In this document: positions 55,327 to 61,124 of the stretch, piece after piece
How the letters are laid out: the number at the start of each line of letters is the position of its first letter
Position numbering within the stretch: the first letter of the stretch is position 1
DNA from: Flavonifractor porci
Lineage (GTDB): Bacteria > Bacillota > Clostridia > Oscillospirales > Oscillospiraceae
DNA: 64,000 nt
Assembly (NCBI RefSeq): GCF_037572415.1
Contig: NZ_JBBHLB010000005.1
Location: 150,050 to 214,049, forward strand
Reading direction: 5' to 3'
The notes under the pieces: generated by a model
What the model was told of the DNA's origin: nothing
What the model saw: the letters and a program-made list of their open reading frames with translations, nothing else
Database searches by the model: none
Made by a program: the position numbers and the translations under genes

Positions 55327-55656
55327 ATGCTGGAGAATTTGATTGAAACCGCACTGCCCACCATCATCGCAATTCTGGAGATCATGGGCATCTTCGTAGT
55401 GGTCGTCTCGGCCACCGGCGCGTTTATCCGTTACCTGAAAGGGCTTATCACCCACTCCGGGTCAGACGTCAAGTTTGCCCTGGCCAACGGGCTGGCCATC
55501 AGTCTGGAATTCAAAATGGCCGCCGAGATCTTGAAAACCGTCCTGGTGCATGAGCTCAATGAGCTGATGGTATTGGGGGCGGTCATCCTTTTGCGTGCGC
55601 TGTTATCATTTCTCATTCACTTTGAAATGAAGCAGATACATCACACCGAATCATAA
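55327..55656 (+). CDS. DUF1622-like small membrane protein
   Basis: GGAGG RBS. 109 aa with 2-3 TMs. The ALANGLAISLEFKMAAEILKTV motif matches my recollection of DUF1622. Confidence 0.65.
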   Translation: MLENLIETALPTIIAILEIMGIFVVVVSATGAFIRYLKGLITHSGSDVKFALANGLAISLEFKMAAEILKTVLVHELNELMVLGAVILLRALLSFLIHFEMKQIHHTES

Positions 55657-55673: not shown

Positions 55674-56747
55674 ATGAAGAAACTGCTTGCACTGATCCTG
55701 TCCGGTACGCTGACCATGGGCGCACTGTCCGCCTGCGGCAGCACGGCGGTGGTGGCTGTCCCCCAGCCTGAGGAATCTGCGCCCGCCGTCACCGAACCGG
55801 TTCCGGAACACACGCAAGGTACATCGGATGCCGCGGTCAAAACCGGCCTCTATCTGGGCACCAGCTTGTCCAGCAGCAAAAATGCCGCCGACGGCGAGGA
55901 TGGATACAGCCAGGCCAACGTCGAACTGGTGGCGGTCACTGTGACCGACGAAGGGGTCATCGACTCCTGCGTGATCGACTCCATCCAGGCAAAGGCCTCC
56001 TTTGACGCCACCGGAACCCTGACTGCCGACCTGACCGCCCAGGTGCCCTCCAAAAACGAGCTGGGCAGCAATTACGGTATGGGCCAGGTCAGTTCCATCG
56101 GCAAGGAGTGGAACGAACAGGTTCAGGCTCTGGCCGATTACGTAGAGGGCAAGACGGTGGAGGAGATCAAGGGCATCGCCGTGACCGAGGAGGGCAAGGC
56201 CTCCGACGCGGATCTGGCCGCCTCCGTTACCGTCTCCATCGCCGGCTATCTGGACGCCATTGAGCAGGCGGTTTCCAACGCCACTCATCTTGGCGCCATG
56301 CAGGGAGATCGTCTGGTTCTGACCACCTCCACCAACATTGCCAACAGCAAGAGCGCCACCGCTGAGGAGCCCGGCCAGGTCCAGACCTCCGCCACTGTGG
56401 CCGCCGTTACCCTGAGCGGCGACGTGATCACCAGCTGCTACATCGACGCTGTCCAGGCCAATGTGGACTTTGATGCTGCCGGCGTGATCACCACCGACCT
56501 GACCGCGGCGCCGCCCACCAAAAATGAGCTGGGCGACAACTACGGCATGGGCCAGATCAGCCCCATCGGCAAGGAATGGAATGAGCAGGTGGCTGCCTTC
56601 TGCGCGTATGTGACCGGCAAGACCCTGAACCAGGTGGCGGGGATCGCCGTGACCGAAAAGGGCGCTGCCGCCGACGCAGACCTGGCCGCCTCGGTCACCA
56701 TCGCCATCGGGGAGTTCCAGGCCCTGATTGCAAAAGCCGCCGCCTGA
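55674..56747 (+). CDS. lipoprotein with two tandem FMN_bind-like domains
   Basis: AGGAGG RBS. Lipobox (MGALSAC-GS). There is an internal duplication: aa approx. 80-205 and 225-357 both contain V.VT...G.I.SC.ID..QA...FDA.G....DLTA..P.KNELG.NYGMGQ.S.IGKEWNEQV...V.GKT......GIAVTE.G...DADLAASVT..I. Confidence 0.7.
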   Translation: MKKLLALILSGTLTMGALSACGSTAVVAVPQPEESAPAVTEPVPEHTQGTSDAAVKTGLYLGTSLSSSKNAADGEDGYSQANVELVAVTVTDEGVIDSCVIDSIQAKASFDATGTLTADLTAQVPSKNELGSNYGMGQVSSIGKEWNEQVQALADYVEGKTVEEIKGIAVTEEGKASDADLAASVTVSIAGYLDAIEQAVSNATHLGAMQGDRLVLTTSTNIANSKSATAEEPGQVQTSATVAAVTLSGDVITSCYIDAVQANVDFDAAGVITTDLTAAPPTKNELGDNYGMGQISPIGKEWNEQVAAFCAYVTGKTLNQVAGIAVTEKGAAADADLAASVTIAIGEFQALIAKAAA

Positions 56748-56801
56748 GTTTTTCTTCAGGCAGCAGCTTGATACCCCTGTCATTTGGAAAGTAGAGGTTA
56801 T

Positions 56802-57836
56802 ATGAAGCGAACGGCCACTTTGATCCTCCTGCTGGTTCTGCTCTGCGGGTGCGCAGCAGCCCCCGCAAAGTCTGACGACACTGGACTGAACCGCTATGAG
56901 GCCACATTTCTGACCCTGTTTGATACCGTCACCACCATCGTGGGATATGCCGAAACCGAGGAGGCCTTTACCGACACGGCCCAGGCCTTCCATGATGAAC
57001 TGCTGGAATATCATCAGCTCTATGACATTTACAACGAGTACGAGGGAATCAACAACATCAAGACCATCAACGATCACGGCTGGGAACACCCCATCAAGGT
57101 GGATCAGCGGATCATTGACCTGCTGTTGTTCAGCAAGGAGCTGTATACCCAGACAGAAGGCAGGGTCAACATCGCCATGGGCAGCGTACTCCGCCTGTGG
57201 CATGATGCCCGGGAAACCGGCATAGCCGACCCCAGCCGGGCGGCACTGCCGGACCAGGCTGCCCTGGAACAGGCCGCAGCCCACACGGATCTCGACAGCA
57301 TCCAGATCGACGTGGAAAAACGCACCGTTTTCCTGTCTGACCCGGAGGTCAAACTGGATGTTGGCGCCATTGCCAAAGGCTATGCGGTGGAGCAGGTCTG
57401 CCGGAACACCCCCTCTGGATTGCTCATCAGCGTGGGCGGAAATGTCTGTCCCACCGGCCCAAAGCCGGAAAGCGGCCATCCGTGGGTGGTGGGCATTCAG
57501 GCCCCGGAAGATCCGGATCAATATCTCCATACCATCTATGTGGAAGATGTCTCTGTGGTCACCAGCGGAGATTATCAGCGGTATTTTACCGTGGACGGCG
57601 TTCCATACCACCATATCATAGATCCTGACACCAACTATCCTGCCGGTCACTGGCGCTCGGTCACCATTCTGTGTCGGGATTCCGGTGTGGCGGACGCCCT
57701 CTCCACCGCCCTTTTTACCCTGCCCCAGAAGGCGGGACAGGCCCTGCTGGACGCCTTCCAGGCAGAGGCCATGTGGGTGCGTCAGGACGGAACCATCCTG
57801 TACAGCCCCGGATTTCAGGCGTATATCCGCGTATAG
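56802..57836 (+). CDS. apbE: FAD:protein FMN transferase (ApbE), lipoprotein
   Basis: MKRTATLILLLVLLCGC lipobox. ApbE motifs are present, including DVGAIAKGYA, SGDYQRYF and HHIIDPDTNYPA. Confidence 0.9.
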   Translation: MKRTATLILLLVLLCGCAAAPAKSDDTGLNRYEATFLTLFDTVTTIVGYAETEEAFTDTAQAFHDELLEYHQLYDIYNEYEGINNIKTINDHGWEHPIKVDQRIIDLLLFSKELYTQTEGRVNIAMGSVLRLWHDARETGIADPSRAALPDQAALEQAAAHTDLDSIQIDVEKRTVFLSDPEVKLDVGAIAKGYAVEQVCRNTPSGLLISVGGNVCPTGPKPESGHPWVVGIQAPEDPDQYLHTIYVEDVSVVTSGDYQRYFTVDGVPYHHIIDPDTNYPAGHWRSVTILCRDSGVADALSTALFTLPQKAGQALLDAFQAEAMWVRQDGTILYSPGFQAYIRV

Positions 57837-57867: not shown

Positions 57868-59175
57868 ATGAGAAAATTGTTTTGGGGTGGTATCCACCCA
57901 GAGGGACATAAAGCTCTCTCCCGGGGTGCATCCCCCATTCCCGCACCCCTGCCGGCGCAGGTCGTCCTGCCCATGGTCCAGCATATCGGCGCAGCCTGCA
58001 CCCCTGTGGTCAAAGTCGGCGATCAGGTCAAAATGGGACAAAAGATCGGCGACGGGGAAGGGATCTGCGCCCCCATCCATGCCTCTGTCTCAGGCAAAGT
58101 GGTGGCTGTGGAGCCCCGTCCCCACCCCGGCGGCAGCGAAGCGCTGTCCGTGGTGATCGAAAATGACTACACAGATACACCGGACGACACCTTAAAGCCC
58201 CATCTGGCCCACCATGACCTCTCCGGAGAAGAGATCCTCCGCATCATCCGGGATGCAGGCATCGTGGGCATGGGCGGCGCCGCATTCCCCACAGACGTGA
58301 AGGCCTTCTCCGCACTGGGCCAGGTGGACTATGTGATCATCAATGCCTGTGAGTGCGAGCCGTATATTACGGCGGACGATACCCTCATCTGTACTTATCC
58401 CGAGCAGGTGATCCGGGGAACGGAGACCCTGATTCATACCCTCACACCCAAGCATACGGTGATCGCCATTGAGGACAACAAGCAGGAGGCCATCCGCATT
58501 CTGAGGGACGCCCTGCCCAAGGACTCATCCATCGAATTGCGGGTACTGCCCACCCGCTACCCCCAGGGCGCCGAGAAGCAGCTGATCCAGGCCGTAACCA
58601 GCCGGCAGGTCCCTCCGGGCAAGCTGCCCGCCGCCGTGGGCTGCGCCGTGTTCAACGCAGCCACCGCTGCCGCCGTCTATCAGGCGGTATACGAGGGCAA
58701 GCCGGTCACCCGCCGCATTGTGACGGTCACCGGCGACGGAGCTGTGGCGCCCAAGAATATGATTTTCCGCATTGGTGCCACCTTCGGTCAGGCCATTGAC
58801 GCTGCCGGCGGCATGGCGGAGGACACCCAAAAAGTGCTGTCCGGCGGTCCTATGATGGGCCTTGCCCAAAAGGACCTGGCCGTGCCGGTTCTGAAGGGCA
58901 CCAACGCCATTCTGTGCCTGAAAGCCACAGTTCCCCAGACCAAAACCCAGACCTGCATCCGCTGCGCCAAGTGCGTGTCCGTTTGCCCCATGCACCTGCA
59001 GCCGCTGTACCTGTACCGCTTTGAACAGGCCGGGAACTGGAAGGAACTTGAGAAGCTGCATTTGACGGACTGTATCGAGTGCGGAAGCTGCAGCTACACC
59101 TGCCCGGCACAGCTCCCGCTGGTGGAGCGGTTCCGTGCGGGCAAACAGCAGCTGAAGGAGGCAAAGAAAGCATGA
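57868..59175 (+). CDS. rnfC: RnfC-like subunit (NADH/FMN-binding, 2x[4Fe-4S])
   Basis: GAGGTGG RBS. GGIHPEGHK...LPMVQHIGAACTPVVKVGDQV N-terminus, GMGGAAFPT, and two CxxCxxCxxxCP clusters (CIRCAKCVSVCP, CIECGSCSYTCP). Confidence 0.9.
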   Translation: MRKLFWGGIHPEGHKALSRGASPIPAPLPAQVVLPMVQHIGAACTPVVKVGDQVKMGQKIGDGEGICAPIHASVSGKVVAVEPRPHPGGSEALSVVIENDYTDTPDDTLKPHLAHHDLSGEEILRIIRDAGIVGMGGAAFPTDVKAFSALGQVDYVIINACECEPYITADDTLICTYPEQVIRGTETLIHTLTPKHTVIAIEDNKQEAIRILRDALPKDSSIELRVLPTRYPQGAEKQLIQAVTSRQVPPGKLPAAVGCAVFNAATAAAVYQAVYEGKPVTRRIVTVTGDGAVAPKNMIFRIGATFGQAIDAAGGMAEDTQKVLSGGPMMGLAQKDLAVPVLKGTNAILCLKATVPQTKTQTCIRCAKCVSVCPMHLQPLYLYRFEQAGNWKELEKLHLTDCIECGSCSYTCPAQLPLVERFRAGKQQLKEAKKA

Positions 59176-60146
59176 AACTGCTTGTAACATCCTCTCCCCA
59201 CATTCACAGCGGGTCCCGTACCAGCCGTCTGATGGGCGCGGTGCTGATCGCGCTGATTCCCGCCCTTGTGGCCGGTGTGTGGTTCTTTGGTATCAGAGCC
59301 CTGGTCCTTACCGCGGTCACTGTGCTGGCCTGCCTGCTCTCCGAGTGGCTCTACCGCATGGTCACCCGGCAGAGCAACACCCTGCCGGACCTGTCCGCAG
59401 CGGTGACCGGCGTTCTGCTGGCTATGACCCTCCCCGCCTCCGCCCCCTACTGGCTGGCGGCTCTGGGCGGTGTCTTTGCCATTGTGGTGGTCAAGGGGCT
59501 GATCGGCGGTCTGGGACAGAACATCTTTAACCCTGCCCTGGCTGCCCGGGCTTTCCTGGTCCTGTTCTGGCCCAGCTGGATGGTCCGCTATGCGGCGCCT
59601 GGTACCGCCCTGGACCCGCTGTCGGTCTCAGTGGACATCGTATCCTCCGCCACTCCTCTGCACCATATGCAGATGCCCGCGCTGCCTACGGAGTCCCTGC
59701 TGGATGTATTTCTGGGAAATATGGGCGGCTGTATCGGCGAGGTGTCCGCCCTGGCCCTGCTGCTGGGCGGCGGATACCTGCTGCTCCGTAAGGTGATCTC
59801 CTGGCGCATTCCGGCGGCCTACCTGGGCGCTGTGGCACTGCTTACCCTGATCTTCTCCAAAGGCCAGGATCCCGTCCTGTGGATGCTCTACAGCCTGATG
59901 GGCGGCGGCGTGCTGCTGGGCGCCTTCTTTATGGCCACGGACTATGCCACCTCCCCTGTTACCCCCAAGGGCCAGCTGATCTACGGCGTGGGATGCGGCG
60001 TACTCACCGTCTGCTTCCGCTGCTACGGACTTTTCCCGGAAGGGGTCACCTATGCCATCCTGCTGATGAACGCCTGTGCCTGGAGCCTGGACCGGCTCAC
60101 ACCCCCCAAGCGCTTTGGCACTGTGAAAGGAGGCGGCGTACAGTGA
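59172..60146 (+). CDS. rnfD: RnfD-like membrane subunit
   Basis: ATGA overlap with rnfC. SSPHIHS N-terminus. A flavinylation-type site DIVSSATPL. Polytopic, 324 aa. Confidence 0.9.
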   Translation: MKLLVTSSPHIHSGSRTSRLMGAVLIALIPALVAGVWFFGIRALVLTAVTVLACLLSEWLYRMVTRQSNTLPDLSAAVTGVLLAMTLPASAPYWLAALGGVFAIVVVKGLIGGLGQNIFNPALAARAFLVLFWPSWMVRYAAPGTALDPLSVSVDIVSSATPLHHMQMPALPTESLLDVFLGNMGGCIGEVSALALLLGGGYLLLRKVISWRIPAAYLGAVALLTLIFSKGQDPVLWMLYSLMGGGVLLGAFFMATDYATSPVTPKGQLIYGVGCGVLTVCFRCYGLFPEGVTYAILLMNACAWSLDRLTPPKRFGTVKGGGVQ

Positions 60147-60682
60147 ACATAAAACAGTTGATCCAGCCTGTGGCTGCCCTTCTCATCGCCGCCCTGGTTT
60201 TGTTCCTGGGCACCACCGTGCTCTCCCCCATTGCTCAGGAAAACAAGGAGCAGGAGCTGCAGTCCATCCTCTCCACCCTTCTGCCCGGCGCAGAGTCCTT
60301 TGTCCAGGAAGAGTACACCGGCGAGGACGAGGCTATCTCCGCGGTCTACAAGGCGGATAACGGCTATGTGATCGAAACGGTCACCGCCGGATATGCCGGC
60401 GATATCACCATGCTGGTAGGCGTCAATCTGGACGGCACCATTGCCGGTCTGGTGGTGCGGGATATGCAGGAGACCTACGGGCTTGGCATGGAGGCCCTCT
60501 CCGACGTATCCTTCCTGTCTCAGTTCCTCTGGAATGGCACCACCTTTACCGTAGGCGAAAATGTGGACGCCCTCACCGGCGCCACCGTTACCTCCAAGGG
60601 GGTGGCCAAGGCTGTTACCTCAGCCAGTGCCTTTGTAACCGGCGCGGATATTGGCTCCAGCGCCACCGAATGGGGAGGTTGA
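60143..60682 (+). CDS. rnfG: RnfG-like FMN-binding subunit
   Basis: GTGA overlap with rnfD and an AAGGAGG RBS. N-terminal TM. Canonical flavinylation motif VDALTGATVTSKGV. Confidence 0.9.
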   Translation: MNIKQLIQPVAALLIAALVLFLGTTVLSPIAQENKEQELQSILSTLLPGAESFVQEEYTGEDEAISAVYKADNGYVIETVTAGYAGDITMLVGVNLDGTIAGLVVRDMQETYGLGMEALSDVSFLSQFLWNGTTFTVGENVDALTGATVTSKGVAKAVTSASAFVTGADIGSSATEWGG

Positions 60683-60686
60683 TGTG

Positions 60687-61124
60687 ATGAAAAATACCTA
60701 TCGTCTGAATACCTTCCTGGCTTTGGTGGCAGGCCTGGTATTTCTGGGCTACCTGGCAGTGCAGGCCTATTCTCCCGCCGCCATTCTTCCTCAGCTGGAT
60801 CTGATGCTGGTCAGCGGGATCTCCCTGGTGGCCCTGATCCTGGAGTATTATTCCGGGAAGCCGGTGGAGCGTCGCAGCTGGCCTGTGACAGCGCTGCTCA
60901 GCGCACTGACGTTCGTTCTGCTGCCTCTGGCGGCGGGTCTGATGTCCGGTCAGGAGCTGCTCCGGTTTGCCCTGGTAAGCTGGGCTGCGTTTATGGTGCT
61001 GACCTTCCTGTTTACCGCCATCTGTCAGCGTCTGGCCTCCGGACCAGCAAGCAAGATCGCTCCCCTGCTCTCTGCCGGAGTCCTGTTCCTGGCGGTTCAG
61101 GGCTGCAGCAGCCTGTTCCTGTGA
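60687..61124 (+). CDS. hypothetical 4-TM membrane protein (last gene of the Rnf-like operon)
   Basis: ATG 4 nt after the rnfG stop. 145 aa with four hydrophobic segments. I see no resemblance to RnfA/RnfE (which have about 6 TMs and about 190 aa). Confidence 0.6.
   Translation: MKNTYRLNTFLALVAGLVFLGYLAVQAYSPAAILPQLDLMLVSGISLVALILEYYSGKPVERRSWPVTALLSALTFVLLPLAAGLMSGQELLRFALVSWAAFMVLTFLFTAICQRLASGPASKIAPLLSAGVLFLAVQGCSSLFL

Follow-up and report, generated by a model that had tools for sequence, protein, structure and literature searches.

A lipoprotein encoded beside an ApbE flavin transferase in Flavonifractor porci is most likely a non-canonical substrate of ApbE flavinylation, predicted from its sequence to be an analogue of PplA and probably of the 'FMN-bind2' subtype described in 2024. 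We consider it fairly probable that the two modules of this protein are flavinylated by the adjacent ApbE and that it serves as a two-flavin extracytosolic electron carrier, the counterpart of PplA. Less certainly, its electrons would come from a truncated Rnf. The gene lies in a stretch of 64,000 nucleotides, here called the window, of contig NZ_JBBHLB010000005.1 (assembly GCF_037572415.1, positions 150,050 to 214,049 of the forward strand).

An internally duplicated lipoprotein next to ApbE

The open reading frame, whose existence was confirmed in the translation, comprises a signal peptide, a tether and two modules, each with one candidate attachment motif (positions are those of the window).

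55674..56747, + strand: lipoprotein ORF, 357 aa
55674..55736, + strand: signal peptide with lipobox L-S-A-C (Cys21), read from the translation
55737..55838, + strand: low-complexity tether, aa 22-55, ~35 residues, predicted to be disordered in the AlphaFold model
55839..56288, + strand: module 1, aa 56-205, FMN_bind-like, of the enlarged 'FMN-bind2-like' type
56211..56231, + strand: motif 1, D180-L-A-A-S-V-T186, aligned with DAISGAT of 2KZX; predicted FMN acceptor Thr186
56310..56744, + strand: module 2, aa 213-357, a repeat of the module 1 domain, as shown by their alignment
56679..56699, + strand: motif 2, D336-L-A-A-S-V-T342, in the same register as motif 1; predicted FMN acceptor Thr342

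The protein starts with MKKLLALILSGTLTMGALSAC, in which the lipobox and Cys21 are read from the translation. Cys21 is conserved at 90% or more in 42 full-length homologues, among which Thr186 and Thr342 are both invariant. A sequence-only reading of this DNA had called the product a lipoprotein encoded directly upstream of ApbE, and this is correct on both counts: signal peptide, lipobox and Cys21 are present, and ApbE begins 37 nt 3′ of the lipoprotein ORF. In the full-length AlphaFold model (pTM 0.81), pLDDT is below 50 at residues 1-7 and 9-49 and above 90 over the modules and the linker between them. With moderate confidence, the model predicts a single rigid unit made up of both modules.

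The modules arose by the tandem duplication that the same reading had recognised. Local alignment of module 1 with module 2 gives a BLOSUM62 score of 377, compared with 38 ± 6.6 for 300 shuffles (maximum 60), and the two are 52% identical in protein sequence. All the shared strings quoted earlier (KNELG.NYGMGQ.S.IGKEWNEQV, GIAVTE.G and DADLAASVT) are found in the ORF; of the two repeats of ~125 aa that had been described, the number stands and the length does not, the modules measuring about 145-150 aa. Their DNA shows 73-77% identity in two stretches, of 167 nt and 94 nt, at a spacing of 468 nt, and the conserved peptide stretches show synonymous differences throughout. We therefore reject a duplication or gene conversion of recent date at the DNA level, given this degree of identity and the many synonymous differences; since these run through the conserved stretches, the likeness of the modules is kept at the protein level and is no fresh copy.

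Fold and motif register of the modules

Scans of the lipoprotein against Pfam and NCBIfam and a single-sequence search of the PDB returned noise only, with no meaningful match to either family collection. With hmmscan, Pfam FMN_bind (PF04205) gave no match at E ≤ 10 to the whole protein or to single modules, modules with S-G-A-T included. A family profile, A1, was made from an alignment of 30 modules, and the AlphaFold2 model of module 1 obtained with this alignment has a pLDDT of 95.9, with strands at residues 2-10, 22-35 and 41-55 and a first helix from residue 72. Its fold is that of solved FMN-binding domains; 100 residues were aligned with 3O6U, the module measuring 150 aa against 122. 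A Foldseek search of the PDB with the module model gave nothing significant.

The A1 profile matches 2KZX with E = 4.7 × 10−7, placing DLassvT on DAISGAT; besides the motif position, Y-x-M and E-W-x-E-Q (E-W-x-E-Q-A in the profile) are common to the family and to this Clostridium thermocellum protein (A3DHT5). The aligned 2KZX segment scores 25.9 bits with Pfam FMN_bind, for which the gathering cut-off is 22. When the module profile was compared by hhalign with shallow FMN_bind alignments (35 RnfG orthologues; four fused canonical FMN_bind domains), the E-values were insignificant, 0.08 and 0.14, and the comparison with the four fused domains, though insignificant, recovered the same motif register. 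The FMN_bind-like layout seen in the sequence-only reading is thus backed by the structure and by the 2KZX intermediate. The profile comparison with FMN_bind (PF04205) that had been set beforehand turned out insignificant when made directly, by hmmscan or hhalign; profile and model support a homology traceable through 2KZX only, plus structure.

Earlier, D-L-A-A-S-V-T had been read as the equivalent of D-x-x-S-G-A-T, and this register agrees with the A1 alignment on DAISGAT of 2KZX and with the DLASGAT and DLASSAT modules of the family. The Asp and the final Thr are kept and S-G-A is replaced by A-S-V, as had been noted, in both modules. A register shifted by two residues, with D-A-D-L-A-A-S on D-x-x-S-G-A-T and Ser as the acceptor, was rejected: some modules have Gly at that place (DLSAGVT), it is the final Thr that falls on the acceptor in the 2KZX alignment, and only the final Thr/Ser is invariant.

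A large clostridial family outside the FMN_bind model

More than 4,000 relatives of the lipoprotein were retrieved by a word-indexed search, and the modules of none of them bear a Pfam domain. A HMMER scan with A1 found 1,831 clusters (50% identity) at E ≤ 10−3 and 1,348 at E ≤ 10−10. Relatives are encoded in at least 570 species genomes, nearly all from Clostridia, and the family is common in gut Clostridia (Flavonifractor, Oscillospiraceae, Lachnospiraceae); the closest locus, in Flavonifractor sp. AGMB03687, has a module identity of 88%. Family proteins mostly contain 2 module copies, and proteins with 3, 4, 5 and 6 also occur. Pfam FMN_bind (PF04205) matched 7 of the 121 family representatives scanned, and the 4 of these that were checked singly have a canonical FMN_bind domain fused N-terminal to two modules. 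Surveys of ApbE flavinylation relied on Pfam FMN_bind matches and on an [S/T]GA[S/T]-like motif (PMC8238504); they were blind to this lipoprotein family because it is invisible to both.

A relaxed motif with a conserved final Thr/Ser

Motif residues were counted in 333 modules, taken from the 150 best representatives at 50% identity; 13 modules are gapped at the last position, which leaves 320 scored.

Position 1: D 253, E 39
Position 2: L 280
Position 4: A, S or T
Position 5: S 179, G 75, T 30
Position 6 (−1): V 178, C 88, A 38
Position 7 (last): T 292, S 27, N 1

The family-wide site is [DE]-L-x-[AST]-[SGT]-[VCA]-[TS], a relaxed form of D-x-x-[ST]-G-A-[ST]. At its last position, 319 of the 320 modules have Thr or Ser, 1 has Asn and 0 have Asp. 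Canonical-looking modules (DLASGAT, DLSSGAT and DLASSAT) occur inside the family, their architecture otherwise unchanged. The motif of the window, set against the canonical one, shows three simultaneous departures: S/T to A, G to S and A to V.

Part of the Thr/Ser conservation could be structural, through helix capping. Thr and Ser are good helix-capping residues, and Asp and Asn also cap well. Capping alone would therefore admit Asp and Asn, yet these are nearly absent (0 and 1 of 320), which argues against it as the sole cause; exclusive Thr/Ser at the position aligned with the flavinylated residue is as expected of a functional acceptor. Substitution data summarised in a 2025 review of ApbE (PMC12052999) bear on the departures. 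There, G-to-A and A-to-V changes in the canonical motif are said to lower flavinylation only to ~50% and T-to-A to abolish it (Bertsova 2019), and D-to-A has minor effects on the flavinylation of the Klebsiella fumarate reductase; all of these are single changes, in another protein and with another ApbE.

The sequence-only reading had offered two possibilities, a non-canonical ApbE flavinylation site or a flavin-free derivative of the domain. The family-wide data favour the former, because the last position is almost without exception Thr/Ser and because ApbE is a conserved neighbour. A flavin-free derivative would have kept the FMN_bind-like fold, lost its flavinylation and served beside ApbE as a lipoprotein for structure, docking or ligand binding. 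It would account for the change of S-G-A to A-S-V in both modules, for their escape from the Pfam FMN_bind model and for the bulkier Val or Cys at position −1 in 266 of 320 modules. A dead site is expected to drift, however, and the kept acceptor, together with Asp or Glu at position 1 in 292 modules, counts against this explanation. So do the DLASGAT, DLSSGAT and DLASSAT modules in the same family, the position of the gene adjoining ApbE at the PplA place in the EET-type clusters of 29 species (see below) and the tolerance of ApbE for A-to-V and G-to-A in another substrate, as given in the review cited (PMC12052999). We regard a flavin-free protein as unlikely. If, as we prefer to think, ApbE does flavinylate the V-type site, its recognition motif needs a wider working definition, and many proteins now called 'hypothetical lipoproteins' can be predicted to be redox carriers.

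Gene neighbourhoods

In the window, the lipoprotein gene is part of the following cluster.

55327..55656, + strand: DUF1622 membrane protein, whose gene immediately precedes that of the lipoprotein (Pfam PF07784, E = 7 × 10−17)
56784..57836, + strand: ApbE flavin transferase, itself a lipoprotein (…LLLVLLCGC…; Pfam PF02424, E = 7 × 10−64, profile positions 2-265 of 266)
57868..59175, + strand: RnfC, the NADH/FMN-binding and 4Fe-4S subunit (Pfam RnfC_N, Complex1_51K, SLBB and Fer4)
59172..60146, + strand: RnfD (Pfam PF03116, E = 3 × 10−113), with a canonical D-I-V-S-S-A-T read from the translation
60146..60682, + strand: RnfG (Pfam FMN_bind, E = 1 × 10−16), with a canonical D-A-L-T-G-A-T site
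60647-60667, + strand: second motif of RnfG, D-I-G-S-S-A-T, in the C-terminal tail, which surfaced in the hhalign comparison with RnfG orthologues
60651..61124, + strand: 157-aa membrane protein (M157), last gene of the cluster, with no Pfam match and no family assignment

M157 has few conserved residues in an alignment of 26 orthologues, and the genes beyond it in the window are on the opposite strand and have no Pfam match.

Gene neighbourhoods were compared in 80 species loci with 10-kb flanks. In 71 of them the next gene after that of the lipoprotein encodes ApbE, and 3 of the 9 exceptions stop at a contig edge. A DUF1622 homologue is found in the flanks of 15 loci, mostly directly upstream of the lipoprotein gene and in two just downstream of ApbE. 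Two cluster types stand out. The Ndh2/quinone type (29 loci) has the order Ndh2-DmkB-DmkA-EetA-EetB-lipoprotein-ApbE, with Pfam identities, checked on locus L021, of polyprenyl synthase, UbiA prenyltransferase, NusG_II and Hpre_diP_synt_I. The Rnf type (37 loci and the window) has the order [EetA-EetB]-[DUF1622]-lipoprotein-ApbE-RnfC-RnfD-RnfG, where brackets mark optional genes; EetA and EetB are not nearby in the window and in 21 other loci of this type. M157 follows RnfG in 26 of the 80 loci, all 26 of the Rnf type, as well as in the window. In both cluster types the V-type motif is usual, being present in 48 of the 51 modules of the Ndh2/quinone type.

Adjacency to ApbE alone is no proof that the lipoprotein is a substrate, because ApbE is needed anyway for RnfD and RnfG. 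Two marks of an ApbE substrate, an extracytosolic lipoprotein signal and an association with apbE, are present.

A tblastn search for RnfA/E with E. coli RsxA (an approximate query) found none in 36 of the 37 Rnf-type loci, within 10-kb flanks, or in the 64-kb window. The single exception, L080, has RnfE and RnfA homologues after RnfG, in conventional rnf order, and served as a positive control for tblastn. Genes for RnfA, RnfE and RnfB may be present in other parts of the genome. A literature search on 'RnfCDG' returned ordinary Rnf operons only.

The tail motif of RnfG, VTGAD-x-x-S-[GS]-A-T-x-W-G-G, is canonical, lies four residues from the C-terminus and is kept in ~35 of the 37 RnfG proteins of RnfCDG-type clusters, whereas the RnfG of L080 lacks it. 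This distribution suggests that the tail may be a flexible flavin arm.

A further alternative accepts that the lipoprotein is flavinylated and makes it an accessory of an ordinary Rnf, only feeding or buffering RnfG in a normal ferredoxin:NAD+ oxidoreductase for which RnfA/E/B are encoded elsewhere. RnfC, RnfD and RnfG are indeed in the window cluster; in L080 the lipoprotein gene stands beside RnfC, RnfD and RnfG, which RnfE and RnfA homologues follow; and eetB is co-localised with Rnf genes in 572 Clostridia genomes (Rivera-Lugo et al. 2023, PMC9973259), which has been read as a sign that it supports Rnf maturation. Three observations nevertheless make an ordinary Rnf accessory rather improbable: the lack of RnfA/E within 10 kb in nearly all Rnf-type loci, as judged with the approximate RsxA query; the lipoprotein-ApbE pair in 29 Ndh2/quinone-type clusters that have no Rnf genes; and the extra C-terminal motif of RnfG, which belongs to the truncated clusters and is missing from L080.

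Quite improbable, finally, is a non-covalent handler, itself unmodified, that passes FAD or riboflavin from an EetB-type exporter to ApbE or holds a free flavin shuttle: the gene does lie between EetA-EetB and ApbE in many loci, EetB is described as the subunit that binds the substrate in an FAD exporter (PMC9973259) and the conserved aromatics Y79 and W91 (module numbering) would suit flavin stacking, covalent or not, but such a role leaves the hydroxyl residue aligned with the flavinylated Thr unexplained, the substrate of Listeria FmnB is the lipoprotein PplA (PMC8906456), and the window and 21 other Rnf-type loci manage with neither EetA nor EetB nearby.

Proposed function

Our preferred reading remains that of a flavinylated carrier. 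The lipoprotein would be anchored in the membrane and face outwards, its two FMN_bind-superfamily modules packed as one unit. The adjacent ApbE probably joins FMN covalently to Thr186 and Thr342, a prediction made with moderate confidence, and the product would act as an extracytosolic two-flavin carrier in flavin-based extracellular electron transfer, in the part that PplA plays. With lower confidence, we propose that the truncated Rnf is the electron supply in the window: NADH would be oxidised at RnfC, and electrons would cross the membrane through RnfD (DIVSSAT) to RnfG, with its second flavin motif on the tail. M157 possibly takes part in the transfer from RnfG to the lipoprotein. With no RnfA/E/B return path encoded in the cluster, electrons would leave via the lipoprotein, whose flavins would pass them to an external acceptor; both this direction and the acceptor are inferred.

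We also put forward, tentatively, a broader possibility, which we rate below the carrier function itself. The unit of lipoprotein, ApbE, RnfC, RnfD, RnfG and M157 may represent a kind of extracellular electron transfer (EET) in Gram-positive bacteria that does without quinones, in which a one-way Rnf without RnfA/E/B replaces NDH-2 and demethylmenaquinone, and in which the flavin on the RnfG tail feeds a two-flavin lipoprotein with an out-of-consensus motif, drawn from a substrate family of at least 570 species that surveys have missed. Many clostridial Rnf-containing clusters appear as RnfCDG-only units paired with this lipoprotein, which suggests quinone-free electron export in abundant gut anaerobes. 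This proposed RnfCDG-only context is the higher-value part of the finding.

Comparison with known systems

The solved relatives nearest to the modules, 2KZX and 3O6U (CPE2226, Clostridium perfringens), differ from them in being single FMN-binding domains of 122-131 aa. Moreover, 2KZX has the canonical D-A-I-S-G-A-T and a segment recognised by Pfam FMN_bind, whereas the lipoprotein modules are not recognised. Huang, Meheust, Barquera and Light (mSystems 2024, PMC11334425) place 3O6U under InterPro IPR007329 and give it as an example of the flavinylated 'FMN-bind1' domain. The FMN-bind2 domain of the same paper, as described there, is ~160 aa long, with one insertion separating strand 1 from strand 2 and another separating strand 3 from helix 1; proteins carry two or four such domains, two modules being predicted to form one two-site unit, and its example NTW96865.1, from an Erysipelotrichaceae bacterium, has no InterPro entry in the table of that paper. 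Our modules are likewise enlarged (145-150 aa), by extra sequence at the same two places, and the proteins are multi-copy (2 in most, 3-6 in others), with a confidently modelled linker (pTM 0.81). The modules are probably FMN-bind2, matched here by the published description only. That paper predicts flavinylation sites, and its accessible text mentions neither an A-S-V-T or S-S-V-T consensus nor the PplA-position and RnfCDG contexts (PMC11334425).

In the eight-gene EET locus of Listeria (Ndh2, DmkB, DmkA, EetA, EetB, PplA, FmnB and FmnA; PMC8906456, PMC9973259), the ApbE homologue FmnB flavinylates the L. monocytogenes lipoprotein PplA at Thr143 and Thr265 (PMC8906456). Like PplA, the window protein is a lipoprotein with two flavinylation-type sites, here predicted, encoded beside an ApbE homologue, and in 29 of the 80 species its relatives hold the PplA position in Ndh2-DmkB-DmkA-EetA-EetB clusters. 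The two differ in the distance between sites, 122 residues in PplA and 156 in the window lipoprotein; PplA was compared by spacing and context, and its shorter spacing implies a smaller domain type. They differ also in their surroundings: of Ndh2, DmkA, DmkB, EetA, EetB and FmnB, the window has only the ApbE counterpart, with RnfC, RnfD, RnfG and M157 instead.

The truncated Rnf resembles, in logic and by analogy, the NQR/RNF-like two-subunit systems of Meheust et al. (eLife 2021, PMC8238504), and does not resemble them in composition. Those are likewise partial Nqr/Rnf complexes with one of the two membrane-crossing paths, for which a one-way flow was proposed since one path only is kept, NAD(P)H being the donor and an extracytosolic flavin the acceptor. 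In them, however, an RnfD-like domain without the RnfD flavinylation site is fused to an NqrF-type NAD-binding domain, whereas the window cluster encodes RnfC, RnfD and RnfG as separate and otherwise ordinary proteins, the flavinylation site of RnfD included; and the two-subunit systems belong mainly to Actinobacteria and the candidate phyla radiation, whereas the window cluster type is found in Clostridia. In the accessible text of Rivera-Lugo et al. (PMC9973259), where the co-localisation of eetB with Rnf genes is reported, the lipoprotein and the missing RnfA/E/B go unmentioned. We would class the protein with a known kind, the PplA-like lipoproteins associated with ApbE, here with FMN-bind2-like modules; its variant feature is a family-wide motif outside the accepted consensus.

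Gene content around the lipoprotein

The Rnf set in the window consists of RnfC, RnfD and RnfG only, the sequence search having covered RnfA/E. RnfA/E homologues were found neither in the window nor in 36 of the 37 loci with a similar lipoprotein–ApbE–RnfC–RnfD–RnfG arrangement. The relevant features of the window are as follows.

55327-55656, DUF1622 membrane protein gene, directly upstream of the lipoprotein gene
57868-61124, RnfC, RnfD and RnfG, then a 157-aa membrane protein
~60146-60682, RnfG gene
60647-60667, second RnfG motif, D-I-G-S-S-A-T, in the C-terminal tail; by sequence a canonical flavinylation motif

This RnfG has two canonical flavinylation motifs, D-A-L-T-G-A-T within the FMN_bind domain and D-I-G-S-S-A-T in the tail, where four residues separate it from the C-terminus. 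The tail consensus, VTGADxxS[GS]ATxWGG, is kept in ∼35 of the 37 RnfG proteins from these RnfCDG-only clusters. It is absent from the RnfG of L080, the sole related locus in which RnfA/E homologues follow RnfG.

The 157-aa membrane protein encoded after RnfG has no family assignment, and comparison of 26 orthologues revealed few conserved residues. A DUF1622 homologue lies in the flanks of 15 of the 80 related loci, mostly directly upstream of the lipoprotein gene, as in the window, and in two loci just downstream of ApbE.

Module architecture of the family

The number of modules per protein reaches six (for example, P0121, 991 aa). In four family proteins (P0131, P0153, P0177 and P0223), a Pfam-positive canonical FMN_bind domain is fused N-terminal to two family modules; such fusions are predicted to be three-flavin proteins. 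The family-wide motif census also revealed a Cys immediately preceding the putative acceptor Thr in 88 of 320 modules (for example, D-L-L-A-G-C-T). The thiol of such a Cys would adjoin the putative site of flavin attachment and may be relevant to redox function.

Module identities were compared family-wide in 133 two-module representatives. Paired modules inside one protein share a mean identity of 48%. Between different proteins, identity is 39.5% among first modules, 37.8% among second modules and 37.4% when a first module is set against a second. Modules of the same protein are closer to each other than equivalent modules across proteins, a sequence pattern suggestive of concerted evolution, of a symmetric pair whose halves co-evolve, or of duplication that has occurred repeatedly.
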